IMG/VR virus record: IMGVR_UViG_3300042894_006602
Strand: one strand, 5' to 3'
Source: a virus
Lineage: Duplodnaviria > Heunggongvirae > Uroviricota > Caudoviricetes
Length of the DNA: 64,000 bases
A program made the translations under genes and the position numbers. The first letter of the stretch is position 1. The number at the start of each line of letters is the position of its first letter. The notes under the pieces were generated by a model. The model was not told the DNA's origin. It saw only the letters and a list, made by a program, of their open reading frames with translations, and did not search any database. Positions 31,139 to 50,979 of this stretch are shown here, in pieces.

Positions 31139-31627
31139 TTAAGTAGTTTCTTGAAAAAGAGATGCTAAAGACCAAGCAATAATTGATACTACTGCTCCTA
31201 CTAAAAATAATAATCCGTTGCTTGTTGCTAATCCTATAAAAGCCGCTACTGGTGCTCCGAAACAAAGTAGTAATGCAACTGATGCGCCTGAAATACGAGC
31301 TATTTTTTCTAATATTGTTTCACTTTCTTCTTCAACTGATTCGTTAACGATAGGTTGAATTTGTAATGGGTTTCCAACAAATGATTTAATCCAATTCCAT
31401 AGTTTCATTAATTCAGACTGACTTTGTTGTTTTAGTTTTTGTAAAGTTTCTTGCATCAATTCAGTGTTTTCTCCAATCCATTCCATAGCAGATTCAGCAC
31501 CTTCTTTAACTTCACCAGTTAATTTTGATATCCAACTTGATAGTTTCTCTTTTATCCATTCATAGGTTTTTTGAAACCAGTTTTCATTTACACCGTTAAA
31601 ATTCTCGTAAGTCTTAATATATTTCAT
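31139..31627 (-). CDS. N-tagged (MKYIKTYENF) protein with C-terminal TM helices
   Basis: Shares the N-terminal MK[YF][LI]K.[YF]EN[FY] motif with at least 10 other proteins in the window. Confidence 0.5.
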   Translation of the reverse strand: MKYIKTYENFNGVNENWFQKTYEWIKEKLSSWISKLTGEVKEGAESAMEWIGENTELMQETLQKLKQQSQSELMKLWNWIKSFVGNPLQIQPIVNESVEEESETILEKIARISGASVALLLCFGAPVAAFIGLATSNGLLFLVGAVVSIIAWSLASLFQETT

Positions 31628-31654
31628 TTGTTTAGAATTTTTTTTATTAAGATA

Positions 31655-32167
31655 TTACTCGAAAGATTCTTTGGTGAACTGCTTGTCAATACCAGGCAAC
31701 TCTTCCTTGAATTCTTTAGCCCATTTAGATTGGCCTAATAAGTATTTAATGAATTTATCTTGATGTTCTTCAGCAACATAACCAAAAATAACTTTGTCGC
31801 TGCTTGCTTTTCCGACTCTCACAAATTTATCTTTCTTTAGTTTGAAACACATCTCAACAGGTTGTTTCAATAATTCACTTTCTAACTTAAAAACCATTGA
31901 CGTGCTGTCAGCAAATAATTTACTGAAGAATCCCTTTTTCTCTTCGGCAAGAAATACTTCACAATCAACTAACTTACAATTATAACTACCCCATTTTGTC
32001 GCACTCATAGGAGTAACGAGTGCATCACAAAGGAATTCATCTGGTTTATCTGAAGCTTTTTCTTCTGTAGGTTTTTGTGACTTATACTGACCACCAGCTA
32101 TAGCACCCATTGATCCTGGTACCATTTCATTAATTTTATAGTTTTCGAATGTTTTAAGATATCTCAT
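31655..32167 (-). CDS. N-tagged (MRYLKTFENY) hypothetical protein
   Basis: Shares the same N-terminal motif. Confidence 0.5.
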   Translation of the reverse strand: MRYLKTFENYKINEMVPGSMGAIAGGQYKSQKPTEEKASDKPDEFLCDALVTPMSATKWGSYNCKLVDCEVFLAEEKKGFFSKLFADSTSMVFKLESELLKQPVEMCFKLKKDKFVRVGKASSDKVIFGYVAEEHQDKFIKYLLGQSKWAKEFKEELPGIDKQFTKESFE

Positions 32168-32260
32168 TTTTAAAATTGTATTTTAGGTTATATATTAAAA
32201 ATTAAAATTAAAAAAGTTTTTGAAAATATTTCCGATCTCTTACTTAAAAGATTGTTTAAT

Positions 32261-33220
32261 TTATTTAAAAAACTTTTCTAATTGTTTCATTAAATCCGGA
32301 TTATCAAATATTTCTTTTTGAACTTTATCAACTAAATATTTAGTAGTTTCTGGTCTTGAATCGGCCATATCAGTTTTTGTTTCATCATCAATTCTAATCT
32401 GAAGTCTTAAATGTTTTTTTAGTAATTGTTCACTTTGATAATCAACTGACATTGATGAAGCTTGCATCATAATAGTAGTGATTGGCTTTACCCATTCTAC
32501 CAATCCCCAACCTTCAGTTTTAACTCCTAAACTTTCAGCGTGAATACCTGTTCCTAAAGAAAGACATTCAATATCAGATAATCTAATATCACAGTTTTTA
32601 ATTACATCAGAAACAGCGGCTAAAACTGGATTGTTGATGTAAACACCACCATCGACTAACACTCTATCTTTGCCGTCATACTTCATTTCATATGAAGGTA
32701 GGTAAGTCGGTGCTGCTGAAGTAGCCCTACAAACATCTTTTAATTTAGCATCAAATCTTTGTTTAGACCATTTAGCATTTCTAGTCTTAAACATTATAAT
32801 CTCATTTGACTTTAGGTCATAAGAAGTTACAATAATAGGTTTTAGTGTATTTTTAAGTGTTAGATCACCAAAATATTGAGTTAAGAGTTTATCTAATCCT
32901 TCTGGTGAATACTTAGGATTGAAAACTGATTTAACACCTTTTGACCACTTTTGAAATATATTTTTTGGTTGTGGAAAAATAGTATCTCCTTCTGTTGTAT
33001 ATAATTTATAAAGTGTGTCTAAATCTAAGTGTGTTGTTTTACCATTTTTAGTTGCTGTTAGACCAGCTGCGATAATACCACCGGTAGAAGTTCCAACAAT
33101 ACAGTCGAATAACTCATAGATTTTTTTACCAGTAATTTCTTCAATTTTTTTTAAGATTAACACTGGAATAATTCCTCTTAATCCACCACCGTCAAGTGAT
33201 AATATTCTATACTTTGCCAT
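32261..33220 (-). CDS. patatin-like phospholipase
   Basis: DGGGLRG oxyanion motif, GTSTGG (GxSxG nucleophile) and the downstream DGG catalytic Asp motif. Confidence 0.8.
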   Translation of the reverse strand: MAKYRILSLDGGGLRGIIPVLILKKIEEITGKKIYELFDCIVGTSTGGIIAAGLTATKNGKTTHLDLDTLYKLYTTEGDTIFPQPKNIFQKWSKGVKSVFNPKYSPEGLDKLLTQYFGDLTLKNTLKPIIVTSYDLKSNEIIMFKTRNAKWSKQRFDAKLKDVCRATSAAPTYLPSYEMKYDGKDRVLVDGGVYINNPVLAAVSDVIKNCDIRLSDIECLSLGTGIHAESLGVKTEGWGLVEWVKPITTIMMQASSMSVDYQSEQLLKKHLRLQIRIDDETKTDMADSRPETTKYLVDKVQKEIFDNPDLMKQLEKFFK

Positions 33221-33303
33221 ATTTAACTTTTTTTAGTTATATATTGACTTATTGTATATCTATATTATTTTCCTAAATTATTTGATATCTTATTAGTAAA
33301 TAC

Positions 33304-33615
33304 TTAAAATAAAGCAGCAATCCATTGAGCTGTTTTGTAACCAGCAAATGCTCCTAAAGCAGCACTACCTGGAAGAATGATAAATCTACCTAAGCGTGTT
33401 TGGTATTTGGCTCTATTGACAATATAAGACATCAAACTATAATAAACTAAAAAGTTAATAAAAACCATAACATCAAGTTCTTTTGAAATAAAAAGTACAA
33501 TTGAGTTACCAACAAATCCCCAAAGGAAATTTATCATTGTTTCTCTAATCAATTCACCAGGTGTTGTGATTGCACCATAGATGTTGAGTTGTTTATCTAA
33601 TATGTTTTTATCCAC
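33304..33615 (-). CDS. small membrane protein
   Basis: Three hydrophobic segments. Confidence 0.4.
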   Translation of the reverse strand: MDKNILDKQLNIYGAITTPGELIRETMINFLWGFVGNSIVLFISKELDVMVFINFLVYYSLMSYIVNRAKYQTRLGRFIILPGSAALGAFAGYKTAQWIAALF

Positions 33616-33624
33616 TTTTTTAAT

Positions 33625-34587
33625 TTATTTTTGGTAACCAAATCTTATAAAATCTTCTTTATAGATTTCATAAATGATATCTTTTTGTTCGTCAGTCAAC
33701 TCATATTCATATTTAGGTGTCTTATTTTCATAAGGAAGTTGAATAGGGTCTAATCCAATTACTTTACAAATTTCGTTAAAGTCTTGTTGCATTGTTTCTA
33801 CATGACCTAAATAATCTACACCGTCAGGAATAAAATAGTGTTGTGGTGTTAAGTGTTCCTGTTCTAATGAATTTACTAATTTAGTTTTGATAAATTCATC
33901 TATATCAGAATTTCCAATAAACTTATCTTTTTCTTCTTCTTGTTTTGTTCCTAATCCACCATTAACTAAGAAAAAGTAAGCACTTAAAAATCTTTGATAA
34001 GGATTTCTAACAAAAGCAAATGAAAAACATTTTGAATTTTTCCTATCAAATACATTATGATTTGTCCGCACACTAAGAACTTTTTTCACACTTGTTCCGC
34101 CAGTTTTTGGAATATGACAAAAAGTGTATTGTTCATTTTTTATATGATTTGTGTGAATTACATTATCCCATTTGTCTTTGACAATTAATAATAGGTTACC
34201 AATTTTCGCTAACTTTTCTACCGGTGAATGCCAAAATCTTTGTCCACCGAATTTGTGAGAGCTTCTCCAAATAATACGGTTATTAAATGTATCGTAAAGT
34301 CTAAATTTTAATTCTATATGTTCATTTGAATTAATATAAATCTTATTTGAAATATAGTCAATAGAAGTTGTGATTATTGGAACTGAAGGATTGATACTAA
34401 TTTCTGGACTATCAATTTCTGAGGTAGTATTAATTCTAAAATTAATATCTGGTGATAACTCCCAGCAATTTCTTTCAAAGATTAACTTACCGTCGATATT
34501 TCTTACAGAAATTTGAAAAAGTCCTGATTTTCCAACTTCAAAATATATCGTTTGTTCTGGTTCTGAAATTCTTAATTTTGTAATCAT
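33625..34587 (-). CDS. sulfotransferase family 2-like protein with N-terminal beta-rich domain
   Basis: FCHIPKTGGTS matches the 5'-PSB (PAPS-binding) motif of Sulfotransfer_2-type enzymes. RNPYQRFLSAYFF fits the 3'-PB region. Confidence 0.55.
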   Translation of the reverse strand: MITKLRISEPEQTIYFEVGKSGLFQISVRNIDGKLIFERNCWELSPDINFRINTTSEIDSPEISINPSVPIITTSIDYISNKIYINSNEHIELKFRLYDTFNNRIIWRSSHKFGGQRFWHSPVEKLAKIGNLLLIVKDKWDNVIHTNHIKNEQYTFCHIPKTGGTSVKKVLSVRTNHNVFDRKNSKCFSFAFVRNPYQRFLSAYFFLVNGGLGTKQEEEKDKFIGNSDIDEFIKTKLVNSLEQEHLTPQHYFIPDGVDYLGHVETMQQDFNEICKVIGLDPIQLPYENKTPKYEYELTDEQKDIIYEIYKEDFIRFGYQK

Positions 34588-34646
34588 ATTTTATTTTATT
34601 ATAAAATAGTTTTTTGTTTGAAATAATTTTCTTTTATATATATCAA

Positions 34647-35330
34647 ATGTTACTAATTGACTCGAAAAATAAAATTGATTCTAATAAACTCTATATTGAA
34701 AAATTTAAAAAGGTTTATATAGAGGCTTTTCCAGATGAAATGGAAAGAGAAGACTTTAATGAAATTCTTTACAGAGTTAGATACTCAGATTTTTTAAAAA
34801 CTGTGATTGTTTTAGATATTGATGGTGATGATTTGTCTGGTGGTATGGTTTTAGATATTTATGATAATCAAATATATCACCTAATTTATTTAGTCACTGA
34901 TCCAAAATTCAGAGTAAGAGGTTGTGCCAAAAAATTAATTAAAGAAGGACTTCCAAGACTTTTTAAAAATTATCAATCAGCTTCGACTGGTGTTTTTGTT
35001 GAAACAAATATACCTCACCTAACTAAAAAAGATTCTTTTTCACCAAAGACTAGAGTTGAAATATTTGAAAAGTTAGGTATGAAAAGAATTCCAATTAAAT
35101 ATATCCAGCCGCCACTGGAATATGGTAAAAACTGGGTATTTAATTTACAACTTCTTTACTGTCCAGTGACTAGTGATTTATCTGAAATTTCAACCCATGA
35201 AGTAGTTTATTTTTTAAATAGTCTTTATCGTGGTTTAGAGCAACCATATGATAATTCAAATTTAGATTTTATGAGAAAAAGCCTGGGAGATTTTGGGGAT
35301 ACCGTAAAACTGGGCACAATTATTAAATGA
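34647..35330 (+). CDS. GNAT-family acetyltransferase-like protein
   Basis: LVTDPKFRVRGCAKKLI resembles GNAT motif A. The start is set at the first ATG; the track ORF begins at a TTG. Confidence 0.4.
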   Translation: MLLIDSKNKIDSNKLYIEKFKKVYIEAFPDEMEREDFNEILYRVRYSDFLKTVIVLDIDGDDLSGGMVLDIYDNQIYHLIYLVTDPKFRVRGCAKKLIKEGLPRLFKNYQSASTGVFVETNIPHLTKKDSFSPKTRVEIFEKLGMKRIPIKYIQPPLEYGKNWVFNLQLLYCPVTSDLSEISTHEVVYFLNSLYRGLEQPYDNSNLDFMRKSLGDFGDTVKLGTIIK

Positions 35331-35370
35331 ACTTTTGTCTAAAAATCTTATATAATAAATAAAAAAATTA

Positions 35371-36252
35371 ATGGCAAAAGACACTTATTTAGATCCACTC
35401 TACAAATGGACTGGTGGTAAAAGAAAAGAAATCAAAACATTTAGTAAATACTATCCAGAGTTTATTACTAACGGAGAAGAATATACTTTTGTTGAACCGT
35501 TTTTTGGAGGTGGTGCTGTTTACTGGTCACTTAACGCAAAAAATAATGTTATCAATGATATTGATGAAGAGTTAGTAAATTTCATTAGACAAGCAAAATC
35601 AAATCCAGAGGCAATCAGATTGGCAGTTAAACAAGTTGGAGATAAAATTAAAGCAGTCAGTGAAAGAGAAAAAGCAAAAGAACTTACAATCGCTGAGGCA
35701 AAAACACTTAGAGGCGAAAACTACTATGAGTGGAGAAATAAAGACCGTAAAGATGGTTTAACTTGGATGTCTGAATTAGATAGAGCCAGTCGTTTTTATA
35801 TCGTTAATCAATTAGCGTTTAATGGTATGAGACGTTTTAACTCCAGAGGTGAATTTAATATTCCATACGGTAATTATAAGTCATTAAATATTGACCTGTC
35901 TGAAAAACACGTTGAACTTTTACAAAGAACTGAAGTACTTTGTGGAAGTTACAAAGATGTTATGTTGGCAAATGATAAACCAAACACATTCATTTATTTA
36001 GATCCACCATATACCAGAGAGTTCAATGAGTATTCACATGAAAATGTATTTGGTACAAAACAACAAATTGAATTAGCCGATACATTTAAATCTATGAAAG
36101 AGGCTAAAGTTATGATTATCATTAACAAAGATGATTTCACAACTGAACTTTACAAAGACTACATCAAATTGACTTATGATTTAAAGTATTCAACTAATAT
36201 CAAAAACAGATATGACAATTCAGTTCAACATATTGTCGTTACAAATTATTAA
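35371..36252 (+). CDS. dam: Dam-family N6-adenine DNA methyltransferase
   Basis: YKWTGGKRK (KWAGGK), FVEPFFGGGAVY, FNGMRRFNSRGEFNIPYG and FIYLDPPY align with E. coli and T4 Dam. Confidence 0.85.
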   Translation: MAKDTYLDPLYKWTGGKRKEIKTFSKYYPEFITNGEEYTFVEPFFGGGAVYWSLNAKNNVINDIDEELVNFIRQAKSNPEAIRLAVKQVGDKIKAVSEREKAKELTIAEAKTLRGENYYEWRNKDRKDGLTWMSELDRASRFYIVNQLAFNGMRRFNSRGEFNIPYGNYKSLNIDLSEKHVELLQRTEVLCGSYKDVMLANDKPNTFIYLDPPYTREFNEYSHENVFGTKQQIELADTFKSMKEAKVMIIINKDDFTTELYKDYIKLTYDLKYSTNIKNRYDNSVQHIVVTNY

Positions 36253-36254
36253 TT

Positions 36255-36896: not shown

Positions 36897-36915
36897 AAAA
36901 ATAATATATAACTTT

Positions 36916-36973
36916 AGCTCCGTGTGACTAACTCCTATCGTGCGCAAAACTTTATGGTTCACGGGGCTTTTTG
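36916..36973 (+). terminator. long terminator hairpin GCTCCGTG...CACGGGGC + TTTTTG
   Basis: An 8-bp stem enclosing a structured loop, followed by a T-run after the HAD gene. Confidence 0.45.
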
Positions 36974-37024
36974 AAAGTCGCAAATCTTTACAAAACTTTT
37001 TACACTTTATTAAATATCAAACAT

Positions 37025-38265: not shown

Positions 38266-38303
38266 ATGACAAAGATAATAAAAAATATTATTTTGTCAAA
38301 ATT

Positions 38304-39566
38304 TTACTCATTTTTTATTGATTTGTAAAGTGAAGTCACTTTAACATCAAGACCTTTTGCTATATCAACACTTCTGTTATAAACGTCATCGAATTTCTTT
38401 TCGTTAAGTAGTTTACCTTCTTCATCAACTCCAGTTAAAATTGATTCGATATTATATTGGAACTTACTTAAATCAGCATAAACATCATCAATTGCTTCTT
38501 TAAGACCATCAGCAATATCTTCAATTCTTTCTTCAATACCCATCAGATAAAGTGTATATTTATGTGGTGAGCCTTTCAATTTAGCAACTGAAAATAAATT
38601 ACTTGGTGTAAAAAAGTTTCTATAACAAAGTGGATCTGTCTTATCTTCAATGCCTCTAAGTACAGTAATTTCAATTCTATCAGCAAATTTTAAACATATA
38701 ACAAAGTGGTCAACCGGTGTTGGTAGTCTTCCTTCTTGTTTTGCTTTTTCTTCATCTAAATAAGCAACTGGAAGTGTAGCAGTTAAACTATCATAAAGTT
38801 TTATTTGCCAAGTTTCACCATCGGCTCTAATATCAGCTTTCGAATTGTCTTCAACAATTTTAGAGTTTTTAATCATACCACCTAAGAATGATTCAAAAAG
38901 AAAACCAGAAGAAGCTGGAGTAAAAAAGTCCTTAATTTCATTAATATAATGTAGAAGCATAATTGCTGACATCTCTTTTTGAATTGTTCTACGGCTTCTT
39001 TTTCTTTTTTCAATACCCTGGCTTAAAGATTGTAGTTCAGAAAGTTTCATTACAAAACCATCACGACCCGAACCAGTTCCGAGACCTCTTGAGTATCTAC
39101 GAACTTTCTTAACAACTTCCATATCAACTTTAGTGTTGACCCAACCAGTTGATAAGATTGGAATTAATTTTGAATAATCATATGGATTACCTTCTTCGAG
39201 TTTGCCTTCTGGTGTTTTTACAGTATCATAAAATTTCCAAAATCTACTTTTAACATTCTTTATATAACTTGGAACTTTTACTTGGTTACCATCAGCGTCA
39301 ACTAAGTGTCCATTTTGCATATTTTTCTTAGGAGCAACTAACTGTCCATTTTTATCAATTCCTGCTAAGTATCTAATACCATCGTGTCCAATAATTCCCA
39401 CGACTTCATTTCTACCACCAACTTTTGCTTTTTCAATATTTCCTTTTCTTAGGGGATATTGTTCAATTGAGCCATTATAAAGATTTCCCATTTCGTCGAT
39501 TACGCAATCGAGAACAGGAATCATTACAACTTCATTCAAAAACTCGGTAAACTTAAATAAATTCAT
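38304..39566 (-). CDS. N-tagged (MNLFKFTEFLNE) hypothetical protein (420 aa)
   Basis: Shares the N-terminal motif. No recognisable catalytic motif. Confidence 0.5.
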   Translation of the reverse strand: MNLFKFTEFLNEVVMIPVLDCVIDEMGNLYNGSIEQYPLRKGNIEKAKVGGRNEVVGIIGHDGIRYLAGIDKNGQLVAPKKNMQNGHLVDADGNQVKVPSYIKNVKSRFWKFYDTVKTPEGKLEEGNPYDYSKLIPILSTGWVNTKVDMEVVKKVRRYSRGLGTGSGRDGFVMKLSELQSLSQGIEKRKRSRRTIQKEMSAIMLLHYINEIKDFFTPASSGFLFESFLGGMIKNSKIVEDNSKADIRADGETWQIKLYDSLTATLPVAYLDEEKAKQEGRLPTPVDHFVICLKFADRIEITVLRGIEDKTDPLCYRNFFTPSNLFSVAKLKGSPHKYTLYLMGIEERIEDIADGLKEAIDDVYADLSKFQYNIESILTGVDEEGKLLNEKKFDDVYNRSVDIAKGLDVKVTSLYKSIKNE

Positions 39567-39635
39567 TGTAGAGTATATATTAAAATCTTTTAACTAATTA
39601 TCGATTTAATGAAAAAAAATTAAAATATATAGAGT

Positions 39636-40463: not shown

Positions 40464-40486
40464 AAAAATCTAACTCTTTTTTTTTA
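40452..40486. terminator. bidirectional terminator (AGAGTTAGAAAAATCTAACTCT + T9)
   Basis: Hairpin overlapping the stop codon of the 39636-40463 gene, between convergent genes. Confidence 0.65.
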
Positions 40487-40753
40487 ATACTCTTCATCGT
40501 AATCATCATAACCAAAGTCATCATAATCATCATCTTCTTCATCCCTATCTAAATAAGGAAAAACATCATTCTCATCAAAAAGTTCAATCAATTCTTCAAT
40601 TTCTACTTCTTCTAAATCCAAGTCTTCAATTTTGAAAACCTCACCATCCAATTCGAATTTAATTTTTAATTCTTTCTGTAGTTGCTTTAATCTTTTTAAT
40701 ACTGCTTTTCTATCAATTGCTTCGTCTAAACTGTAATAATTGTGGAGTTCCAT
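40484..40753 (-). CDS. small highly acidic protein (C-terminal DDDYDDFGYDDYDEEY)
   Basis: 89 aa with a strongly acidic C-terminal third. Confidence 0.45.
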   Translation of the reverse strand: MELHNYYSLDEAIDRKAVLKRLKQLQKELKIKFELDGEVFKIEDLDLEEVEIEELIELFDENDVFPYLDRDEEDDDYDDFGYDDYDEEY

Positions 40754-40761: not shown

Positions 40762-41505
40762 CTATTTTTTATTTAATTTTTTTGCTATTTCGGTTTCTGA
40801 TAATCTTGGTAATTCCTCAGTGATTGGATATTTAGTTAAGATAGCAAATTTTTCACCATCATCCATATAAGTAACATCTAAATAGTATCCAGCACACTTA
40901 ATCTTCATTCTGGTATCAGAAATCTCAACTGGAATTATCTCAGAAGTTTGTGGTAAATCGAATGATTTAATATTTCTGATAAATCCCCAGTTGTCATTCT
41001 TATAAAATTCTGCCTTCAAAAGTTGTAAAAAACTTGAATCTTTTTTTAATAACTCATTTTTTCTAATACCATGAACATCTTTAAATTTGAAGCCAAGTGT
41101 TATGTGAAAGTCAAAAGGTTTTAATCCGAATCTGTTTCTTATAGCGTTTAATTTTTCAGATTTACAAACTATAAAATAACATCTATTTTCATTCTGAAAT
41201 GCGGTTCCGATACCTAACATTTTCAAATCATCAATCTCATAATGAAATATTGGTTCGAGTGAATTAATGAATTTGTCAATACCCAAATCTTTTGAAAGTT
41301 GATTGTAATCCATTACATTAATAACGGTTAGATGATATTTGCCACCATCACGTTGCTTTTGTAAATCAGTGAATATTTTGAAATCATCTTCGCCAATAAT
41401 AGACTCCAATTCATTCAAATAAGGCTCAACAATGTCATGTGGTATATCTAAACCCAAATAATTGTTAGCCACGCGGTCTTTTAAATAAGAAACATAATAA
41501 ATCAT
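40762..41505 (-). CDS. 2H phosphoesterase superfamily protein (LigT/CPDase-like)
   Basis: Two H-x-T-x motifs (GKYHLTVIN and FDFHITLGF) at the spacing typical of 2',3'-cyclic phosphodiesterase / 2'-5' RNA ligase folds. Confidence 0.6.
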   Translation of the reverse strand: MIYYVSYLKDRVANNYLGLDIPHDIVEPYLNELESIIGEDDFKIFTDLQKQRDGGKYHLTVINVMDYNQLSKDLGIDKFINSLEPIFHYEIDDLKMLGIGTAFQNENRCYFIVCKSEKLNAIRNRFGLKPFDFHITLGFKFKDVHGIRKNELLKKDSSFLQLLKAEFYKNDNWGFIRNIKSFDLPQTSEIIPVEISDTRMKIKCAGYYLDVTYMDDGEKFAILTKYPITEELPRLSETEIAKKLNKK

Positions 41506-41524: not shown

Positions 41525-42697
41525 TTATAAAAGATTTTTGAAATTTTCTATTTCTCTCTTTTTAATTTCAATTCCTAAATCTCTACCCTTAAAACCCTGA
41601 GACATAAGCTCTTCAGCCGATGTGATTGGTTTATACTCAACGAATTTAATTTTGACATTATCATTAATGCCCAATGCTTTATACCATTCAATTATAGTAT
41701 TATCATCAATGTGACACTGAAGTTTAGATTTATACATATCAAAAGCCAACTCAGGAGTTAATTGTAATAATCTAATTAAGAAAACCACTTTTGTTGATAC
41801 TTCTGATTCTATTTTATAATCTTGAACCAATTTCTTTTCTAATCCATCCGTACTTTCATTCTTAAATAGATTAGCAATAACTACAACAAAATCTTTACTA
41901 TCAACTAATTCAGTATTGATATCAGAATCCGGAAATACTTCAGACCACATATCAAACTTAGTAAAGAAGTTCAAATAGTTTCTATAATCTTTTGCTTGTT
42001 TCCAAGCTTTCTTCATTTCTTCCCAGACTCTTTCTTGAGAAATTCTTTTCATTTCACCAGTTTCAGGTTCTATATTTTCTAATTGTTTTCTTTTTTCAAT
42101 TGCCTTCTCAGTGTCTACATGAAGTGGATGTCCATATCTCGAAGCAAAACGAAATGCTCTTAAAATTCTTAAACTATCTTCGTCAAACCTTTCTATAGGA
42201 TCACCAACCATTTGAGTTATACCTTTTTCTAAGTGCTCACGACCTCCAGTCAAATCAACAATCTCTTTATTATCTAAGTCATAGAAAAGTGCGTTATAAG
42301 TCAAATCTCTTCTTTTAACATCATCTTCAATAGTAACTCCTAATTTAACTTCAGGGTTTCTTCCTTTACTAACATCTTCTCTGAATGTAGCAATTTCCAT
42401 TCCCTCTGGTTGATCATCGGTGAATACAACTACAACTCCAAATGCTTTACCCTGTAAGTTAGTCTTATAATCTTTTCCGATGATTTCTAATACCTCATCT
42501 GGGAGAGCGTCAGTTGCTAAGTCAAAGTCTTTTGGTTTATCTCCAGTGAGGAAGTCTCTAACGGCACCTCCGACGACATACAATTTTTTTCCTTTTGATT
42601 TGAAAAGTAATTGCAATTCTTTAACCGATTGTGGAATTATATTCCACATATCTGAACTTTGTGATTCTAAAAACTGTTGATATTTTTTAATTTTCAT
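41525..42697 (-). CDS. cca: tRNA nucleotidyltransferase (CCA-adding enzyme / poly(A) polymerase head-domain family), N-tagged (MKIKKYQQFLES)
   Basis: LYVVGGAVRDFLTG..PKDFDLAT (the GG..RD..DxD nucleotidyltransferase core), RDLTYNALFYD and DPIERFDEDSLRILRAFRFASRYG match class II CCA enzymes. Confidence 0.8.
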   Translation of the reverse strand: MKIKKYQQFLESQSSDMWNIIPQSVKELQLLFKSKGKKLYVVGGAVRDFLTGDKPKDFDLATDALPDEVLEIIGKDYKTNLQGKAFGVVVVFTDDQPEGMEIATFREDVSKGRNPEVKLGVTIEDDVKRRDLTYNALFYDLDNKEIVDLTGGREHLEKGITQMVGDPIERFDEDSLRILRAFRFASRYGHPLHVDTEKAIEKRKQLENIEPETGEMKRISQERVWEEMKKAWKQAKDYRNYLNFFTKFDMWSEVFPDSDINTELVDSKDFVVVIANLFKNESTDGLEKKLVQDYKIESEVSTKVVFLIRLLQLTPELAFDMYKSKLQCHIDDNTIIEWYKALGINDNVKIKFVEYKPITSAEELMSQGFKGRDLGIEIKKREIENFKNLL

Positions 42698-42713
42698 TTT
42701 GTAAATATAATAA

Positions 42714-44009
42714 TTAATCTCTATATAATGAATTTAATCTCACCACTCTAAGTTTATCAATAAAATCTTCCAACTCTGACAATTCAACTGGTCTTTCTTC
42801 ATGTTCACACCAAGTTTCGATTATATCTTCTTTAAAGTCTTTACCATTTGGTTGTATATAATCAATGTCACCTTCAAAAAGATCAACTAATAAATTTCTA
42901 AACTTAATAGCTTCTCTTCTGTTTGAGAAATAAACTTCACTAAACTCAGATCCTTCAATCGATACAACTCCTGTAGACACCATAGGTAGTTTTACACCAT
43001 CTTCATCTTTGCAGTTTTGATTGGTCAGATTGATATAAACATCTTGTAACCAAATTATACCATTATTTGAGTTTGTATAACCTCTGATATCACCACCAAC
43101 ATACCAATCTAAAACTTCTAAATCTTCTTCTGAAACTGGATGAACTCCAAACATAAACTGTGGCCAAAGTGAATTTCTATCAAGATCTAACCATTCTGGT
43201 AGCATCTCACTTAGGTAATAGTCAGAATTAAAATACAATTGTATATAACAATTTGCGAATTTAATTTCACTTCCCAGACCCATAACGGTACCACCACCCT
43301 TAACAAATCTTAGTTGAAATTGACCTAATTTTTTTGCTTCTTCTAAAGCCATCTTGTGTTTAGCATCCTTTTCTCTTTGTCTAACAACCTCTGCCCAAGC
43401 TCTTAGTTGTTCAGGTCTTTTAATATGACCTAAACTTTTTAATTTATCAGCCGCACTTATGTATGTTCTTGGATCAAGATCTTCATTTGTTGAAAGGTGT
43501 CCTCTCGTTCTATCTACAAAAATTTTTTCCTTAGTGAATGAAATCTCAAATGTCCATTTATTAACTCTATCAAAAGTCGTTGGATCATATACTGGTGAGT
43601 TTATAATTTGAGGTCTTCTTTGGTATTCTTTTTCAATAGACTTGACACCAAATGTTTCAGGATCTGTTGTCCAATGATAACCTTTAATTTTCTGGTTAAT
43701 TGTGAATCCATCTTCTGATTCTTCAAAGTTTTCATCTTCTACACAAGTAAAGTGTTCTATTTCAAATCCCTCTCCACTTAAATAAGACCAAATAGATTCA
43801 ATTGGTATTTTTATATCACTATATGTGAATTCTTTATTCCTACTCACAGAAACTTTAACTCTTTCTTTTTGTGAATGATAATCTATCTCAGAAACATTAG
43901 TTTGAAACTCATCATCCCTTAATTCAATAAGCAAGTCTTCAACTGTTGATTTCAATTCTGATTTCAATCTAACACCGACAGCTTCTTCATATCTTTTTAA
44001 ATACTTCAT
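42714..44009 (-). CDS. paralog family member A (431 aa; N-tag MKYLKRYEEA, C-term SLYRD)
   Basis: Part of a 4-gene tandem array with overlapping stop/start codons. Confidence 0.55.
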   Translation of the reverse strand: MKYLKRYEEAVGVRLKSELKSTVEDLLIELRDDEFQTNVSEIDYHSQKERVKVSVSRNKEFTYSDIKIPIESIWSYLSGEGFEIEHFTCVEDENFEESEDGFTINQKIKGYHWTTDPETFGVKSIEKEYQRRPQIINSPVYDPTTFDRVNKWTFEISFTKEKIFVDRTRGHLSTNEDLDPRTYISAADKLKSLGHIKRPEQLRAWAEVVRQREKDAKHKMALEEAKKLGQFQLRFVKGGGTVMGLGSEIKFANCYIQLYFNSDYYLSEMLPEWLDLDRNSLWPQFMFGVHPVSEEDLEVLDWYVGGDIRGYTNSNNGIIWLQDVYINLTNQNCKDEDGVKLPMVSTGVVSIEGSEFSEVYFSNRREAIKFRNLLVDLFEGDIDYIQPNGKDFKEDIIETWCEHEERPVELSELEDFIDKLRVVRLNSLYRD

Positions 44010-44012
44010 CTT

Positions 44013-44870
44013 TTAATCTCTATATAAACCATTTACTGACATTCTCTTAGCAGCATCAACAGCTCCTTTATAAGTATCTTCACCAAAAGGATTTTTTGGC
44101 CAGGTATCTGGATCTGTTAAATCATATTCATCCTCTCTACCATTTAAGTAATGGTCCATCAGTTTTTTTCTCCACCCCTCTTCATCTAAACTAAGTGTTG
44201 ATTTTAATTGTTCTGCAATTGTTCTTTCACCATAAGTACCCCAATTTGATTTTCCTTCTAATGTATTAGATAACAAGTTTTTAAATTTCATAGCATCTGA
44301 TCTATAGTTAAAGTGGAAAGTAAATCCATCTCTATCTTCAAATCCACCAAGTCCACATGTATAAGAAGGAACTCCGCCTTTACCAAAAAGAGTAAGCCAC
44401 AATCTATTAGTCCAGTATCTATAGTCACCCCACATAGAGTTATTTCTAAAATACTCAATGTCTTTATTTTCGCTTGTTTCAAGCATTTTAAGCGTTTCAT
44501 CATCAGCTGGTATAATGGCAAATTCCATAGCAATTCCCATTGACCAATCCATACCTTCGTCTAACCAATCATGTAACTGGTCTTTAAACCAATCAGATTC
44601 TAAACACATTTGTAGATAAAATTTACCAGAAAATATATCTTTCTTATTTGATCCATAACCTCTTGCCACTGTAATATCAAATAAACCAAACTCTTTATTT
44701 TCACTTTGAGCTTGTAATAACTTTTGAGATTTCTCTTTTAATTCAACTTGAGTTGCATAATCTAATAATTCCGCACCTCTTCTTTTGTGACCCATCTGAG
44801 TGAATTTTTCACCTGCTTTTTTGTAAGTAGATGCTTTTAACTCTTCATTAAATCTTTTTAAATATCTCAT
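44013..44870 (-). CDS. paralog family member B (285 aa; N-tag MRYLKRFNEEL, C-term NGLYRD)
   Basis: The N-terminal 40 aa are alignable with members C and D (..TY..AG.K....GH..R...L). Confidence 0.55.
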   Translation of the reverse strand: MRYLKRFNEELKASTYKKAGEKFTQMGHKRRGAELLDYATQVELKEKSQKLLQAQSENKEFGLFDITVARGYGSNKKDIFSGKFYLQMCLESDWFKDQLHDWLDEGMDWSMGIAMEFAIIPADDETLKMLETSENKDIEYFRNNSMWGDYRYWTNRLWLTLFGKGGVPSYTCGLGGFEDRDGFTFHFNYRSDAMKFKNLLSNTLEGKSNWGTYGERTIAEQLKSTLSLDEEGWRKKLMDHYLNGREDEYDLTDPDTWPKNPFGEDTYKGAVDAAKRMSVNGLYRD

Positions 44871-45592
44871 AGTGTTGAAGAAAGTAAATTTGGACTAATT
44901 GTTCTCATGTATTCAGCAGCATCTTCTAATTTAAATCCATAATCAGAAGAGAATGAATTCTCAGCTAAGATACAATTTGTTAATTTTTCATATAAGTCAT
45001 CAGCATCCGTATAACCAGAAGGATACCCTAATTGCGGATTACTAAATATTTGAATAAGTAAATTTTTGAACTTGTTAGCGGACCCTCTATCAGCAAAATT
45101 GATTTTACCATTCATATCTTCATCATAGTCCCACATATTCCACTTAGTAAATCTAACAGTATCTCCTAATTCATATTCTAAATTAAAGATTTTACCCCAG
45201 AAAAATCCATTTCCAAAGTCATAGTCTGGACAAAGTTCCATATACTGATAGATTAAATCTTCAGATGTTGGAATTAAACCTATAAAAAAAGTAATACCAC
45301 TTTCTGGTTCATCACCAAATGCCAAATCATCAAAGTTAACATCTAAATGAAAATCACCAGTTAATGTACTTCCGGTCTCTGGATTTTTTATAGTCATCTT
45401 AAATGTTCCGAATTGAGCATAATCTTGAATTCGGTCTTGCCACTTAATCATCTCTTCTTTTTTCTCAGTTTCTTTAGCCCAGTCTTTTAAAGCATTTGCT
45501 CTATCATGATGACCTAATTTATCAAGTTTTCTAGCAGCAGACATATAAGTCTGTGGTCTTAATTCTTCGTTAAACTTTTTTAAATACTTCAT
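44867..45592 (-). CDS. paralog family member C (241 aa; N-tag MKYLKKFNEEL)
   Basis: 4-nt overlaps (ATGA) with both neighbours. Confidence 0.55.
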   Translation of the reverse strand: MKYLKKFNEELRPQTYMSAARKLDKLGHHDRANALKDWAKETEKKEEMIKWQDRIQDYAQFGTFKMTIKNPETGSTLTGDFHLDVNFDDLAFGDEPESGITFFIGLIPTSEDLIYQYMELCPDYDFGNGFFWGKIFNLEYELGDTVRFTKWNMWDYDEDMNGKINFADRGSANKFKNLLIQIFSNPQLGYPSGYTDADDLYEKLTNCILAENSFSSDYGFKLEDAAEYMRTISPNLLSSTL

Positions 45593-46491
45593 AAACTTAT
45601 TTCTTTTTCATACCATCTACTACGAATCCAATCACCAGATCCACCACGAGTTGGTAAATCATCATCATAAAGACCTTGAATTTTTATTTTTGTAAAAGCA
45701 TCAACAGCTTTTTCTATGTTTTCTGATTTACCACCAACAATTCTTAAAACATTCATAATAGCATCTTTGATATCATCTAAGTGATTAGTGATAAGCCAGT
45801 TTTTAAATTTAACTGCTGATTTTCTGTCACTGAAAATACCATATTGATTATCATTAGGAGATTTTATGATTACATTATAACATGCAGACCAATTATAAAA
45901 TTCCGTCAAAGTAGTTGGAGTAAATTCTTCACCATCGCGAAGAAGTCCATTTTCAGCATCCCATCTAGCATCAGCATCCCAATCATTTAAACCACTATAC
46001 CATTCACTTAAGTCTATTTGTAAGTTAAAGGCTTTTACTTCTTTAGCAGTAGGATTATTAGCATTCCAACAAAAATTTGAGCTTCTATTACTTTTTTCTA
46101 TAGTTTCTCTTGTAGCCTTAAAGGAAAACTCAAAACTTATATTAAGTCCATCTTGACCCAATTTCCACCTTTCAACTAAATCTTCTGCTAACATTTCTGG
46201 ATCTTTTCCATATGACATTCCATTAAATCCTTTAAATTCATCTTTGTATTTTGTTGGAGTTGAAGCATAATAAATACCCGTCAATCTAGGTTGAGTAAAT
46301 GATGATTCTTTTGCTATAAAGACTGGATTATTATTTGCCCATGTCATATTATAAAAACCAAACTCTCTTTCATCAGCAAAATCATGTAGTAAAGAAGCTT
46401 GACTAGTCTTATTATAATAATCTAATTTACTACCAGCACTTCTGTAAGTCTTAGGATTTAACTCTTCGTTGAATTTCTTGATAAACTTCAT
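45589..46491 (-). CDS. paralog family member D (300 aa; N-tag MKFIKKFNEEL, C-terminal IQGLYDDD)
   Basis: Same N-terminal architecture as members A-C. Confidence 0.55.
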   Translation of the reverse strand: MKFIKKFNEELNPKTYRSAGSKLDYYNKTSQASLLHDFADEREFGFYNMTWANNNPVFIAKESSFTQPRLTGIYYASTPTKYKDEFKGFNGMSYGKDPEMLAEDLVERWKLGQDGLNISFEFSFKATRETIEKSNRSSNFCWNANNPTAKEVKAFNLQIDLSEWYSGLNDWDADARWDAENGLLRDGEEFTPTTLTEFYNWSACYNVIIKSPNDNQYGIFSDRKSAVKFKNWLITNHLDDIKDAIMNVLRIVGGKSENIEKAVDAFTKIKIQGLYDDDLPTRGGSGDWIRSRWYEKEISL

Positions 46492-46526
46492 ACGTTTTTA
46501 TATATTAAGTTTTTAATATATAAATT

Positions 46527-46781
46527 ATGAAATGGATAAAATTATTTGAGGATTTCAAACAAAATAATGAAGAAGGAACTCTTATTACAATTGATGATAT
46601 TATAAAATGTATTAAGAAAAGAGGAGTTATTTATGCGACGATTGTTAAAGAATATCCAGATAATAACCCAAAAGATCCAATCACTCCTGTTGATATAGAT
46701 GAAGATGGTTTAATAACAGTTGATATTGATGGAAAAGAATATCAAATTGACCTAGATGATGTTGAGAAAATAGAATACTAA
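46527..46781 (+). CDS. small N-tagged protein (MKWIKLFEDF)
   Basis: 84-aa ORF with the shared N-terminal motif. Confidence 0.4.
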   Translation: MKWIKLFEDFKQNNEEGTLITIDDIIKCIKKRGVIYATIVKEYPDNNPKDPITPVDIDEDGLITVDIDGKEYQIDLDDVEKIEY

Positions 46782-47275
46782 TCAATTAAGTTTCTTAATT
46801 TTATATCTCTTAATATAGGTTTCGTTTTTTCATTTACTAAATGAGTTATTTCATTTTCGCTTCTATAATTCATACCAGTTAAATCATAAGTGCTGTATTG
46901 ATAACCACCCAATATATCTTTCATTATTTGAAGGTGTGTTTCTTCAGTTCTCCAGAAATTTTTTAGCGGAAAAGGTATCCACATATCAATGTTATTAGAT
47001 TGACAGTAACCAATTAGGTCTTTAAATTTATAGGTGTCTTCTTTATAGATATCAACATGAAATAACATTAGATTTTTACCATCAAGTTTTTCTAAATCGA
47101 TTTTATCAGGATGATTACATCCAAATTTAGTCCAGATATAAGGTTCCGATACTTGGTGTCTATAAAGTAACATACATTCTGGAAGACTATAGAATATTTG
47201 ATAACAAGCTCGAGCGGCTACATTCCAAGCGAGCTTGTATTCAATACTCATATCCATTTCTAAAACATTAATCAT
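46778..47275 (-). CDS. hypothetical protein (165 aa)
   Basis: ORF overlapping the next gene by 8 nt. Confidence 0.45.
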   Translation of the reverse strand: MINVLEMDMSIEYKLAWNVAARACYQIFYSLPECMLLYRHQVSEPYIWTKFGCNHPDKIDLEKLDGKNLMLFHVDIYKEDTYKFKDLIGYCQSNNIDMWIPFPLKNFWRTEETHLQIMKDILGGYQYSTYDLTGMNYRSENEITHLVNEKTKPILRDIKLRNLID

Positions 47276-47834
47276 TTAAGAACTTAATAATTTTTTCTTT
47301 TATCCCAGATTGTTTAATACCAATATATTGTTTAGTCATAACAAAATTGGATAATCCACCATTTGAATTACCAGAAACCGGTCCAAACTTTTCACCTAAA
47401 TCCATATCATCAACAGCAACCCAATTAGTAACTTCTGGATGTTGGTCTAACCAAGTTTTAATTTCCTTAATTCTCCACTCCTCTAACTCACTTTGTGTGA
47501 ATTGGGATTTAGACTGATAACTTACTAAATTAGGAGTAACATCAATTGGTGATTTGATAACATCATATTTATCAAACATATCTTGAAGTTCTTCAAGTGT
47601 AGCAAACAACTTCCAATCTGAACTAACAACAATCTCAACATCATAATGTAACAAAATCGAATTGAGAGTTTTAGTTGCTTTAAAATCAAAGTTGTCTAAC
47701 TTAATCCAAGCCGGCATATCATCTTCAGATGAACCAGGAAATTCTTTTTTAAACTTAATCATTTTTTTAGCACGACCACCCCACTGCTCAGCGAGACACA
47801 TCACACCATCGAAATCTAAAAATATTACTTTCAT
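47268..47834 (-). CDS. HAD-like hydrolase
   Basis: N-terminal MKVIFLDFDGVM (DxDGV motif I) and VVSSDW. Confidence 0.5.
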   Translation of the reverse strand: MKVIFLDFDGVMCLAEQWGGRAKKMIKFKKEFPGSSEDDMPAWIKLDNFDFKATKTLNSILLHYDVEIVVSSDWKLFATLEELQDMFDKYDVIKSPIDVTPNLVSYQSKSQFTQSELEEWRIKEIKTWLDQHPEVTNWVAVDDMDLGEKFGPVSGNSNGGLSNFVMTKQYIGIKQSGIKEKIIKFLND

Positions 47835-47863
47835 ATTTTATATATTTAATCAAATATAGTTAA

Positions 47864-48694
47864 TTATTTTGACCAATTAACGTTTTTATTTTTTAATTGT
47901 GGTGTCCAGTAAAGTTTATAAACTGGTTCATCTACATTTACTTTCCACTTATTATAAAAATCTCTTGCCATTTTGATATCTCCTGACCTTATTATCTCTA
48001 TGGATTTTTTATAGAATTTAAATGGTATCTTTTCAAAAATCAAATCATCTATATCACAATCATTACTAAATTTTTCATACCAACTTTCAAATGTCGGTGA
48101 TTCGAAATGTAAAATCACAATATCTTTAGTATTTAAATTGGCAACTTTTCCCTCAAAACCATGAGGGCAAAAAACTTTACCAACTGGTGTGTCTTGTTCA
48201 ATTAACTTTAAACTACTAACTCTGGCTGCACTCTTACCATTGCTGTAGGCTAATTTATTCAATACTTTAAATTTGTTTGTTTGATAAAAAGGATTTTCTA
48301 AATTATCTCGGTCATACACAGCTTCATAATTTTGTATTTTAACAACATCATAATCTTTTGAAACATTGCTAAGTAGTTCTTTTAAATTAAGAACTGAACA
48401 AATTAGTTCATCAGAGTCTATATGAAACAACCAATCAATTTCCAAACTCTGTATTTTTGGCAAATGATGTTGTATCAATTGTTTTTGTCTGTTCATTTGT
48501 GACCAGTAATTATTTCTTTTAGAAGAATTCTCATCAAAAATTACAAAGACATTTTCATACCTATCAATTATTTGAGCAAGTTCTGGTGTATCTTCAACTC
48601 TAAGAAAGATATAATCCACACCTAAACTAAAGTGATAATCTATCCAAGTATCAAAATTAACTGGCTTTCTTACCATCGAACAAATCGCAATCAT
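47864..48694 (-). CDS. possible GT-A-fold glycosyltransferase
   Basis: HIDSDE (DxD-like) and overall alpha/beta character. Weak. Confidence 0.3.
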   Translation of the reverse strand: MIAICSMVRKPVNFDTWIDYHFSLGVDYIFLRVEDTPELAQIIDRYENVFVIFDENSSKRNNYWSQMNRQKQLIQHHLPKIQSLEIDWLFHIDSDELICSVLNLKELLSNVSKDYDVVKIQNYEAVYDRDNLENPFYQTNKFKVLNKLAYSNGKSAARVSSLKLIEQDTPVGKVFCPHGFEGKVANLNTKDIVILHFESPTFESWYEKFSNDCDIDDLIFEKIPFKFYKKSIEIIRSGDIKMARDFYNKWKVNVDEPVYKLYWTPQLKNKNVNWSK

Positions 48695-48727
48695 ACTTAT
48701 ATGATATAGGATTTTTATATATAGTTT

Positions 48728-49285
48728 ATGAAGTATCTTAAAAAGTTTAGACTATTTGAAAAAAGTGCCAGTTCTTTAGTATCTGAACAAATTGATTTAG
48801 TGGAATTAGAGAATATTCTAATTGACTTTGAACAAATGGGTTTAGACTATGATATTAAAGCTGGATCATCTATTGTAATAGATTGGAATTTATTTAACGA
48901 TGATAAAACTGGTGGTACAAAATGTTTACACTCAAGAGAAATTGATAAATACACAAAATCATCTGGTAATTCATTAACAATAGAATTCAATACATCAGAA
49001 CCACATACTTATAATATAAACGAAACATCAGAAGCTTATGAAATGTTAAAGCATTATCTTTTTGATAATTATAATCTAATTCCAAACTATATCTATATTA
49101 ATAGTCATTGGAATTATATGTACTTTGAGGACTTTGATAAGATAAAAGAAATAGAAGTTACTGATAATTGGCAGTTCTCAAATCCGAGCCTTCCATTAAG
49201 ACCAGAAAATACATTTAAAGCACACAAATTAGTTTTTGGATTTTATTTAGATCCTAACGCAGTTTTCAGAGGACCTGAGTTCTAA
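48728..49285 (+). CDS. N-tagged ([13 protein letters not shown]) hypothetical protein
   Basis: Shared N-terminal motif. Confidence 0.5.
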
Positions 49286-50979
49286 CTACACTCCGGACAA
49301 TCGTGACGTCCATTTCCATCACAATCATAACATTCTCTTTCACCGTCACCATCACAATCACCACACTCTACTCGACCATCACCATCACAGTTTCTACAAT
49401 CGTAATTTCCATCACCATCACATTTGTAGCATTCTTTTCTACCATTACCATCACAGTCTAAGCATTCTTGTTTTCCACTTCCAGAGCAGTTTCCACACTC
49501 TTCTCCGTCTATTTCACCATCACCATCACAATCATCACAATCTACTTTACCATCTCCATTACAAGGATCACAGTATAAATCACCAGCACCATCACAGATA
49601 TGACATAGTTCTTTACCACTTCCATCACAATCATCACAGTCTACATTTCCTCTACCATCACACTCGTAACATTCTCTAGTTCCATCACCATCACAGCTTC
49701 CACATTCAACTCTACCATTTCCGCCACACTCAGAACAAGATCCGTTTCCACCTTCTGTGTCAGTAAGTTCATATTCGTAATCAAAGTTTGATGAATTGTA
49801 AAGCATTCCTTTTCTTGGATTATAATACTTAAATGAATCCATATAAGGATAGTGAGCATACTCACCACCATTATCTAATTCAACAGAGAATTCACCTTGT
49901 CTTTTTTCAACAGTTCCGTCTTCTTTATGAAACTCAAAGTCAGTATATTCACTAAAGTCTTGTCTTGATTTAAACCAATATTTGTTTGCAATGGCCCACT
50001 CTTTAAATAGTTGTTCATCAGCAGTTCTGATACTATAAATTCTTTCCATAACATTTGTCGACAACTCATAAGGTTCCATTTCCCAAAGAATAGCTCTTCC
50101 ACAAATCTTATCTGGATTACTCTCTGACATTAATAACAGAAGTTTACATTGACTATTATCTGTATAAATACTTAAATAGTTTTGACATCTATCATAGCGC
50201 ATACAAGAGCTTCCTAAACTTCCGGATTCTTCTTCATACATACTTCTATGATAGTATTTTTTGATATCTTTTCCTTCTACAACTTTAAATCTTGTATTTA
50301 GAACGTCTTTTAATTTTTCAATCTCAGCACGATACTTATAAACAAAGTCTTCAATTTCAGCGTCTTTGAATTTAACACCGGATTTTGTAAGAAGTGCTCT
50401 AACAAATCTACCAACCGAAACTTCAGAACTACGAACAGCACTTGGGCCATCATTAACTGCAGCTTTATTTATAAGTATTTGATGTTTTTTTCCATTCTTA
50501 ACCCATTGAAAAATAACTAATGGATTTCCTGTTATAAATGAGTATTCAAAATTAGATTTGTATTCAGGAAGAAGTGAACTTATCTCTTGTAAAGTGTAAA
50601 TTTTTACAACTTGACCAACTGTGTCGTTTTCTGGAACAATAAATTCCGACTCCTCGTATTTATCAACTCCACTTCCTTCTATTTTACTTAATTGATACGT
50701 GATTTGTGGATAAATTCCATTTTGACTTATGACCTTACCTGTCTTACCAACTTTATCATCTGGTTTGAAGAAAAGTGTATCAGTTTTTTCTTTATTAATA
50801 TCAATATAGTTTTGGTTGATATCAACTTCTTTACCTTCAATATCAAACAAATGAGTTGATATTGGCGAGTCAATTTTTTTTAGAACAGAAACAAAATCTT
50901 TAGAAAAGTCTATGTTTGCTTCTAATAGCAAAAAAAGGTTAGACTCTGTAATAAAATCGTCATATTTGAATAACTTCAT
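49282..50979 (-). CDS. N-tagged ([14 protein letters not shown]) protein with about 16 tandem DnaJ-type CxxCxGxG zinc-finger repeats at C-terminus
   Basis: The C-terminal 150 aa read [45 protein letters not shown]..., regular C-x2-C-x-G-x-G units. Confidence 0.65.

Follow-up and report, generated by a model that had tools for sequence, protein, structure and literature searches.

A short peptide, called the tag in what follows, begins 12 of the 82 open reading frames (ORFs), about one gene in seven, in a 64,000-nucleotide stretch of the tailed-phage record IMGVR_UViG_3300042894_006602 in IMG/VR. This whole stretch, which has a GC content of 30%, is referred to as the window. An initial annotation of the DNA had reported 11 ORFs that share such an N-terminal peptide and had likened it to the capsid-targeting sequence (CTS) of phage T4. 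All 11 lie where that annotation had placed them and start as it had described, and one more, ORF 24352..25323, joins the set. The tag occurs in two forms, class 1, which reads MK[YH][LI]Kx[FY][NE]x[FEL], and class 2, which reads ..K[FY]x[ED]F[LI]xE.

The genes of the window are accessory, and virion genes are absent from it. Its only deposited phage relatives are LR745206.1 (634,780 bp) and LR756502.1 (642,428 bp), both of them unannotated sequences of uncultured huge phages. A secreted protein encoded at 1608-3512, with a cohesin domain and a type IX secretion system (T9SS) Por_Secre_tail sorting domain, points to a host among the Bacteroidota. The clade of the window is, judging by its genes, one of huge phages of Bacteroidota that are related to LR745206.1 and are distant members of the T4 superfamily.

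Tagged Genes of the Window

Tags were scored with a nine-column position-specific scoring matrix (PSSM) that was built from tags of the clade and aligned on K-x-[YF]. Four tagged ORFs, all on the minus strand, are tandem paralogs: 42714..44009, a divergent member of the tandem family (431 residues; tag MKYLKRYEEA; PSSM score 15.1), 44013..44870 (285 residues, starting MRYLKRFNEELKASTY; 17.3), 44867..45592 (241 residues, starting MKYLKKFNEELRPQTY, and acidic, with an isoelectric point (pI) of 4.6), and 45589..46491 (300 residues, starting MKFIKKFNEELNPKTY; 18.3). The 241-residue paralog has 358 homologs, all of them hypothetical proteins, on contigs of up to 523 kb. Its AlphaFold model has a predicted local distance difference test (pLDDT) value of 92; residues 1-8 fall below 50 and lie apart from the fold. 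A Foldseek comparison of this model gave no significant PDB match, and its BFVD matches (best E = 5e-4) were all to uncharacterized proteins from uncultured marine phages.

The tagged ORF at 41525..42697 (minus strand, 390 residues, tag MKIKKYQQFLES at 42662-42697) encodes a tRNA nucleotidyltransferase of the CCA-adding family. It matches Pfam PolyA_pol over residues 39-160 (2.9e-30) and the PHROG for tRNA nucleotidyltransferase (1.9e-58), from which we assign it, as a prediction, to the class II enzymes; its specificity for CCA, A or poly(A) addition is likewise only predicted. Since the catalytic head domain begins near residue 36-39 and GGAVRD, the GG.VRD motif, occupies residues 43-48, the 12-residue tag and a short variable linker, QSSD, precede what is otherwise a normal enzyme. 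AlphaFold models the tag as a short, unpacked helix of low confidence, followed by a flexible linker. The tag thus appears to be a modular appendage, being left outside the fold in both AlphaFold models. The protein is encoded on contigs of Joint Genome Institute (JGI) metagenome 3300042890, and it has 120 orthologs at 78-96% identity, with the tag present in every full-length sequence; four apparent tagless variants of 374 residues were ruled out as contig-end truncations.

In two IMG/VR records, 3300008116_000020 (L020 9781-12050) and 3300042691_043155 (L022), the CCA gene, which in L020 is one of the apparently tagless variants, has a GTG start (VKIITKYEKFLES) and is interrupted by about 1 kb of inserted DNA. 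This insert encodes a Cys-rich endonuclease-like ORF and looks like a mobile intron or homing element. The window's CCA gene is followed by genes for an untagged 2H-SAK phosphoesterase (40762-41505) and a small, very acidic protein (40484-40753). This synteny is conserved across relatives, and the three genes together look like an RNA-repair module.

ORF 31139..31627 (minus strand, 162 residues, tag MKYIKTYENFNGVNE; score 15.1) has a V-N-E tripeptide that ends at residue 15 (GVNE/N) and a hydrophobic C-terminal segment that probably lies in a membrane; a similar tagged, membrane-anchored ORF is found at 50787 in LR745206.1. ORF 31655..32167 (minus strand, 170 residues; score 10.4) begins with the tag MRYLKTFENYKINE, followed by MVPGSMGAIAGGQ. 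Its I-N-E, which ends at residue 14 (YKINE/M), is the tripeptide of the predicted cleavage site of the capsid protein, HSINE/N, that is described below. A likeness of this ORF to the capsid-protein N-arm was considered and is not significant (score 28 against a null of 23). The small acidic ORF 46527..46781 (plus strand, 84 residues, tag MKWIKLFEDFKQ; score 14.2) has an ortholog of 65% identity in LR745206.1 and belongs to a family of 13, in which 12 members are tagged by regular expression and the remaining one has the tag after an upstream Met. ORF 48728..49285 (plus strand, 185 residues; score 12.5) has an L-F-E that ends at residue 11 (RLFE/K).

Class 2, the most T4-like form of the tag, is represented in the window by three ORFs. 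ORF 24352..25323 (plus strand, 323 residues, tag MRKIKNYQEFTNEE at 24352-24393; score 7.4) was assigned by the class-2 regular expression and has no Pfam match. ORF 38304..39566 (minus strand, 420 residues, tag MNLFKFTEFLNE) has an L-N-E ending at residue 12 (FLNE/V) and no Pfam or PHROG match; its ortholog at 378849 in LR745206.1 is 27% identical and has kept the tag as MNIKKFENFSEL. ORF 49282..50979 (minus strand, 565 residues) has an I-T-E ending at residue 12 (FITE/S) and, at its C-terminus, about 12 tandem CxxCxGxG zinc-finger repeats of DnaJ/BSD2 type (Pfam BSD2_CRD 1.8e-07); its ortholog at 90898 in LR745206.1, of 34% identity, starts MIKKYLDFIKES. The ORF at 55275-55784 also matches the class-2 pattern and was left out of the tagged count. 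When the tagged ORFs of the window were searched against Pfam and PHROGs, families were found only for the CCA enzyme and the zinc-finger repeats.

N-terminal Position and Residue Order of the Motif

Ten of the 82 ORFs score above the 99th percentile of random peptides of N-terminal composition, against 0.8 expected; ORFs 38304 and 49282 are two further tagged ORFs of the class-2 variant. At the DNA level, the degenerate pattern ATGARRTDBHTNAARNNNTWYVA, which encodes M-[KR]-x-[LIV..]-K-x-[YF]-[EDNQ..], has seven matches in the window, all at ORF starts, where dinucleotide shuffles predict 0.02, and 34 matches scattered across LR745206.1. The initial annotation had allowed that AT-rich N-terminal composition might account for the motif. 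Enrichment goes well beyond such composition: the core motif begins 68 of 366 ORFs from the window and IMG/VR loci, against 4.3 +/- 2.0 (maximum 13) in 1000 shuffles of residues 2-14 within each N-terminus, and only 5 of 1297 internal Met-start windows. These counts confirm that the tag motif is real, strictly N-terminal and dependent on residue order.

An exact coding pattern for MKYLKKFNE[ED] is present in 18 IMG/VR stretches and has no match in 596 Gb of bacterial and archaeal genomes. A Sec or lipoprotein signal peptide was considered and ruled out, the tags being charged and amphipathic and lacking the hydrophobic core, some 10 residues or longer, that follows the basic N-terminus of such a peptide. 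True signal peptides of the window, such as those of ORFs 1608 and 16765, have low PSSM scores or are filtered out.

The same excess is seen at the scale of a whole genome. Among 907 ORFs called in LR745206.1, 105 lie above the 99th percentile (9 expected) and 46 above the 99.9th (0.9 expected), and internal windows give PSSM matches exactly at the chance rate. Class-2 N-termini number 18, against 0.43 in shuffles, with MKIRKYIEFITE, MIKKYLQFIKE and MKLFKYIEFINE as examples. This corresponds to roughly 100 tagged genes per genome in the clade, or about 10% of the genes. In LR745206.1 they are spread over the whole genome, 38% having a tagged neighbour against 25% by chance, and their products are mostly acidic proteins of 80-340 residues (median pI 5.2). 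The tagged proteins with a recognisable function are an NFACT-R RNA-binding protein and three enzymes of RNA-repair type: the CCA-adding enzyme, a T4 Rnl1-type RNA ligase, and a fusion of a 2H-phosphoesterase (Acb1-like) with a DEDD exonuclease.

So wide a distribution could be a trace of common descent, left by the expansion of one family and by recombination that spread a 5' cassette of promoter and first codons, with the peptide itself having no current function. The four tandem paralogs of the window fit such a history, and the promoter-like motif described below often travels with the tag. Many small tagged ORFs of the relatives also have a second motif in common, ..hhxELxDxG[FWY], so that part of the tagged set may be one fast-evolving superfamily. 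Yet the tag is found on enzymes of unrelated folds, and the tagged ORFs of the window and its relatives, once their first 20 residues are trimmed, fall into about 27 families with no similarity detectable by BLAST. The earlier statement that the tagged proteins are unrelated downstream of the motif therefore holds across these families and fails for the four paralogs (42714-46491), and perhaps also for the small-ORF superfamily. A peptide with no function would also be expected to drift, whereas in 46 aligned CCA orthologs K4, Y6, F9, L10, E11 and S12 are invariant and their neighbours, positions 5, 7, 8 and 13-16, vary; furthermore, orthologs of the window and LR745206.1 at only 27-34% identity retain the tag. 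The peptide is therefore under purifying selection, and we consider descent as the whole explanation very improbable.

Codon Use and a Promoter-like Motif

The window has 13 copies of a promoter-like motif, TAATATATA, against 2.7 expected, and LR745206.1 has about 190. In the window the motif lies upstream of tagged ORF 24352 (24338-24346, plus strand) and of tagged ORF 49282..50979 (50985-50993, minus strand), and forms a divergent pair at 46499-46507 (minus strand) and 46514-46522 (plus strand), 4-7 nucleotides upstream of the tagged genes that start at 46491 (minus strand) and 46527 (plus strand). A variant, TTATATATA, at 48715-48723 is upstream of tagged ORF 48728. Further sites include 39574-39582 and 32189-32197 on the minus strand and 62142-62150 on the plus strand. 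The distance from the end of the motif to the ATG is either 4-6 or 17-29 nucleotides, the latter being usual for virion genes, and the shorter spacing suggests near-leaderless mRNAs.

In its form the motif resembles what we take to be the T4 late promoter, TATAAATA. Portal and protease-scaffold genes have it upstream, and sheath, terminase and capsid genes have close variants of it. Since the motif or its variants stand before virion genes and a helicase gene alike, it carries no information on timing, and we rejected it as evidence of late expression.

These promoters bear on a second alternative, in which the tag is a feature of expression or folding, made up of a Lys at codon 2, an AT-rich and unstructured 5' coding region, an early-elongation ramp, and TAATATATA promoters 4-6 nucleotides before the ATG. 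In LR745206.1 the motif is found within 40 nucleotides upstream of 33 of 80 tagged genes (41%) and of 106 of 827 untagged ones (13%), often at the short spacing. The residues of the tag, K, Y, L/I, F, N and E, all have AT-rich codons, and the A content of tag codons is 49%, that of untagged N-termini 45%. Composition of this kind nevertheless falls far short of predicting the order of the residues, and the offset of the tag from Met varies by 1-4 residues while its hydrophobic periodicity is conserved to residues 10-12. The tag is also present in translationally coupled, promoterless genes within operons, such as 44867 and 44013. Codons of the tag vary synonymously among tagged genes, and in their codons 2-12 the choice among synonymous codons is the same as in gene bodies and in untagged N-termini (Lys, for instance, is AAA at 0.77, 0.74 and 0.76, respectively). 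With codon use ordinary and no extra synonymous bias, selection is therefore on the peptide and not on the RNA. An expression feature would also leave the T4 CTS match, to which we turn below, unexplained, and we regard this alternative as improbable.

T4 Resemblance, Head Genes and Cleavage-type Sites

The likeness to the T4 CTS noted in the initial annotation is borne out by the PSSM. When the 214 ORFs identified in the first 135 kb of T4 were ranked with it, the top four were ipI (MKTFKEF.., 12.5), gp61.1 (MKTFKEFIKE, 12.0), ipII (10.7) and ipIII (10.7). The T4 CTS scores 10.7 bits, above 99.96% of random peptides (p about 4e-4). The gp61.1 gene (L041 18966-19130), which encodes a hypothetical protein of 54 residues, has a CTS-like start and ranks second of the 214 ORFs, between the known internal proteins.

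The clade also has head genes of T4 type, as seen in LR745206.1 and in 80 related IMG/VR head loci, of which one, L087, comes from the window's own metagenome. In LR745206.1, 19 T4 ORFs have BLASTP matches, including replication, recombination and virion core genes. The portal protein is of gp20 type (Portal_T4 2.7e-57), and the capsid protein belongs to the Gp23 family (1.8e-26), with an N-terminus, KKWSPVLE, that parallels NKWKPLLE of T4. A prohead protease, sought as had been proposed, accompanies them: a 707-residue ORF directly upstream of the capsid gene (L038 546-2669, equal to LR745206.1 198546-200669) joins a gp21-like protease domain to a scaffold-like region. The N-terminal domain is 28% identical to T4 gp21 over 107 residues (BLASTP, E = 2e-4), an alignment that covers the GE.NHP and VSSR.G motifs with His and Ser; T4 gp21 was missed when the domain was searched with phmmer against sequences of the PDB, and the pairwise BLASTP comparison was needed. 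The protease domain is followed by 12 tandem 14-residue repeats, NIAYSEY[LI]AENLDK, and an acidic tail. In the related head loci, 78 of 79 ORFs upstream of the capsid gene are such protease-scaffold fusions with 10-14 Y[LIV][AS]E repeats.

In 76 of 77 related loci the capsid protein has the site ..H[SQ]INE/NAY. The Glu of HSINE/N is the last before the mature domain, so that maturation probably takes place there, provided that the clade protease, like that of T4, cuts after Glu. Similar sites are enriched after the tag. In residues 6-20 of LR745206.1 proteins, [LIV]xE is present in 53% of tagged and 24% of untagged N-termini and in 20% of internal windows; the corresponding values for [IV]NE are 12%, 1% (p = 4e-8) and 1%. 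The Glu at the cleavage position is mostly residue 11, and a site of [LIV]xE type is present in 7 of the window's 12 tagged ORFs. The LxE-type cleavage site that had been suggested is thus enriched in the tagged set as a whole, but it lacks canonical form in the CCA enzyme, where the site is QFLE/S (F-L-E), and in one large family considered in the Discussion.

Tagged genes are embedded in the head module itself. In many of the 80 head loci, two tag-bearing genes lie immediately downstream of the capsid gene on either side of an M28-like peptidase gene, and encode the NFACT-R protein (M[RI][LK]KKY.QFNES) and an acidic protein of 140-190 residues (MKLKKYNNYLNED). A tagged gene of 188 codons is directly upstream of the tail sheath gene. 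In addition, a tagged 84-residue ORF (L003 43266-43520, equal to LR745206.1 93266-93520) copies capsid residues 47-85 (SGMGAV..AQP..LAGTT..GSGD), with a score of 94 against a null of 25 +/- 4. The capsid, portal, sheath, terminase and baseplate hub proteins are all untagged, as in T4.

Two side observations concern the same module. The gene of the M28-like metallopeptidase (452 residues; L006 2934-4292, equal to LR745206.1 202934-204292) has a conserved position, two genes downstream of the capsid gene. A small ORF of 157 residues at 291407 in LR745206.1 copies the capsid propeptide (KKWAPIIE...HSINE); it and the 84-residue ORF may be mimics of the capsid N-arm or propeptide.

The head genes bear on a third alternative, in which the tag docks its protein on, or sorts it to, a target other than the capsid. 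That target could be a chaperone or common hub protein, a compartment built by the phage, the ribosome, the tRNA pool, or a protease such as ClpXP that reads the tag as a signal. The T4 likeness would then come from a generic short amphipathic helix, and a free N-terminal amphipathic peptide is what the AlphaFold models show. Tags on cytoplasmic RNA enzymes (the CCA enzyme, the Rnl1-like ligase, the 2H/DEDD fusion and the NFACT-R protein) sit well with this account, and a tenth of the genes is many for capsid cargo. A target outside the capsid would, however, give no reason for a PSSM built from clade tags to single out exactly the T4 internal proteins, for [LIV]xE and [IV]NE to be enriched after the tag in a form that matches the capsid-protein site, for tagged genes to be embedded in the head module, or for one tagged ORF to copy the capsid-protein N-arm. 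We consider such a target unlikely.

Other Features of the Window

Two DUF2589 proteins are encoded at 160-651 and 738-1337, and a tRNA-Leu(TAA) gene lies at 11459-11543. The ORF at 51044-52516 encodes a DUF2201-type putative metallopeptidase with a VWA-like domain. Beside it, at 52583-54346, is an ORF for a 587-residue protein that has homologs in related contigs.

Discussion

The T4 CTS, MKTYQEFIAE, is removed by a single cleavage and is sufficient to package foreign proteins (PMC8442874), and removal of the CTS propeptide has been attributed to the prohead protease gp21 (PMC5694885). The internal proteins of T-even phages are diverse defence proteins that have the CTS as their only common feature (PMC3012670). 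In the clade of the window, a strictly N-terminal motif under peptide-level selection coincides with a match to the T4 CTS, head genes of T4 type, enrichment of cleavage-type sites and tagged genes adjacent to the capsid gene. A CTS-type function is therefore the best explanation, which supports the initial annotation in part, and we put the probability that the tag is a relative or close analogue of the T4 CTS at roughly 55%.

If the tag acts as a CTS, the free amphipathic peptide of about 10-15 residues would dock the newly made protein on the scaffolding core of the assembling prohead. The gp21-type prohead protease would then remove it after the Glu of [L/I/V]-x-E, and the mature protein would stay in the head and be delivered into the cell with the DNA. 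Such a system would have grown from three genes in T4 to roughly 100 per genome in this clade, and its tagged set would include tandem paralog families of small acidic proteins as well as enzymes of RNA-repair type.

A more specific version, which we hold tentatively and at less than even odds, is that in the largest known phages, which are of Mahaphage type and infect Bacteroidota, a tag descended from the T4 CTS loads about 100 proteins, or about 10% of the proteome, including RNA-repair and anti-signalling enzymes that are injected. The CCA-adding enzyme, the Rnl1-type ligase and the 2H-phosphoesterase/exonuclease would then form a counter-defence and tRNA-repair kit that is active before gene expression. 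That an injected tRNA-repair enzyme would serve as counter-defence, as had been proposed for this DNA, we only infer.

Several points weigh against a CTS-type function. All members of the clade are uncultured and are known from sequence alone, and the scale, with about 10% of the genes and about 100 mostly acidic cargo species, is unprecedented. The head module is located in relatives and not in the window itself, and the Peptidase_S77 match of the protease domain is weak (E = 0.005, below the Pfam cut-off). As to cleavage, the largest family, MKYLKKFNEEL, is without a canonical [LIV]xE near the tag, and the enrichment of [LI]FE partly overlaps the definition of the tag. Among the tagged products, ORF 31139 of the window has a C-terminal membrane anchor, and RNA ligase and CCA enzymes, which we take to be ordinary cytoplasmic early enzymes in T4, equally could act in the cytoplasm. 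Lastly, the promoter variant TTATATATA precedes a helicase gene, so that the motif is no proof of late expression.

Should the tag prove to be a CTS-type signal, sequence alone would show directly which proteins uncultured huge phages package and inject, and their cargo repertoire would be far larger than that of any phage studied so far. RNA-repair enzymes, made in advance and injected, would then be indicated as a counter-defence, and the CTS mechanism would be ancient within the T4 superfamily. The tag could also serve as a portable packaging signal.

A literature search of PMC open-access papers and bioRxiv with the motif strings gave no match, and a comparative paper on jumbo phages (PMC7824862) makes no mention of such a tag. 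The nearest known system is the T4 CTS. Both peptides stand at the extreme N-terminus, span about 10-19 residues, follow the pattern K-x-[YF]-x-[EQ]-F-[IL]-x-E (MKTYQEFIAE and MKTFKEF...ITE in T4) and precede cargo that is otherwise unrelated and fast-evolving; head genes of gp20, gp21 and gp23 type are present in both. The [L/I]-x-E site that ends the T4 peptide is present in part of the clade's tags. The differences are of scale and detail. T4 has three tagged genes, whereas the clade has roughly 100 per genome, and the clade's cargo is mostly acidic and includes RNA-repair-type enzymes. The dominant class-1 tag (MKYLKxFNE..) has an extra MKYL prefix and is often without a canonical cleavage site, the clade protease is fused to a repeat-rich scaffold, and the system is known here from genes alone.

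A second comparison is with the inner-body and ejection proteins of SPN3US, phiKZ and 201phi2-1, whose large heads likewise hold dozens of internal proteins, including paralog families. The N-terminal propeptides of giant-phage proteins are removed after Glu by a gp21-like protease and presumably direct these proteins to the prohead interior (PMC5694885). They differ from the tag in being mostly 80-160 residues long, in having no common short consensus and in their A/S/G-x-E sites; the tag has a consensus of about 12 residues and L/I/V-x-E sites of T4 type. Encapsulin cargo-loading peptides, in which a short terminal peptide sends diverse enzymes into an HK97-fold shell, are usually C-terminal and unrelated in sequence, are not removed by proteolysis and involve no injection, and they offer only an analogy. 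Among these systems, the tag is best regarded as a much expanded form of the T4 CTS and internal-protein system in huge phages of the T4 superfamily.

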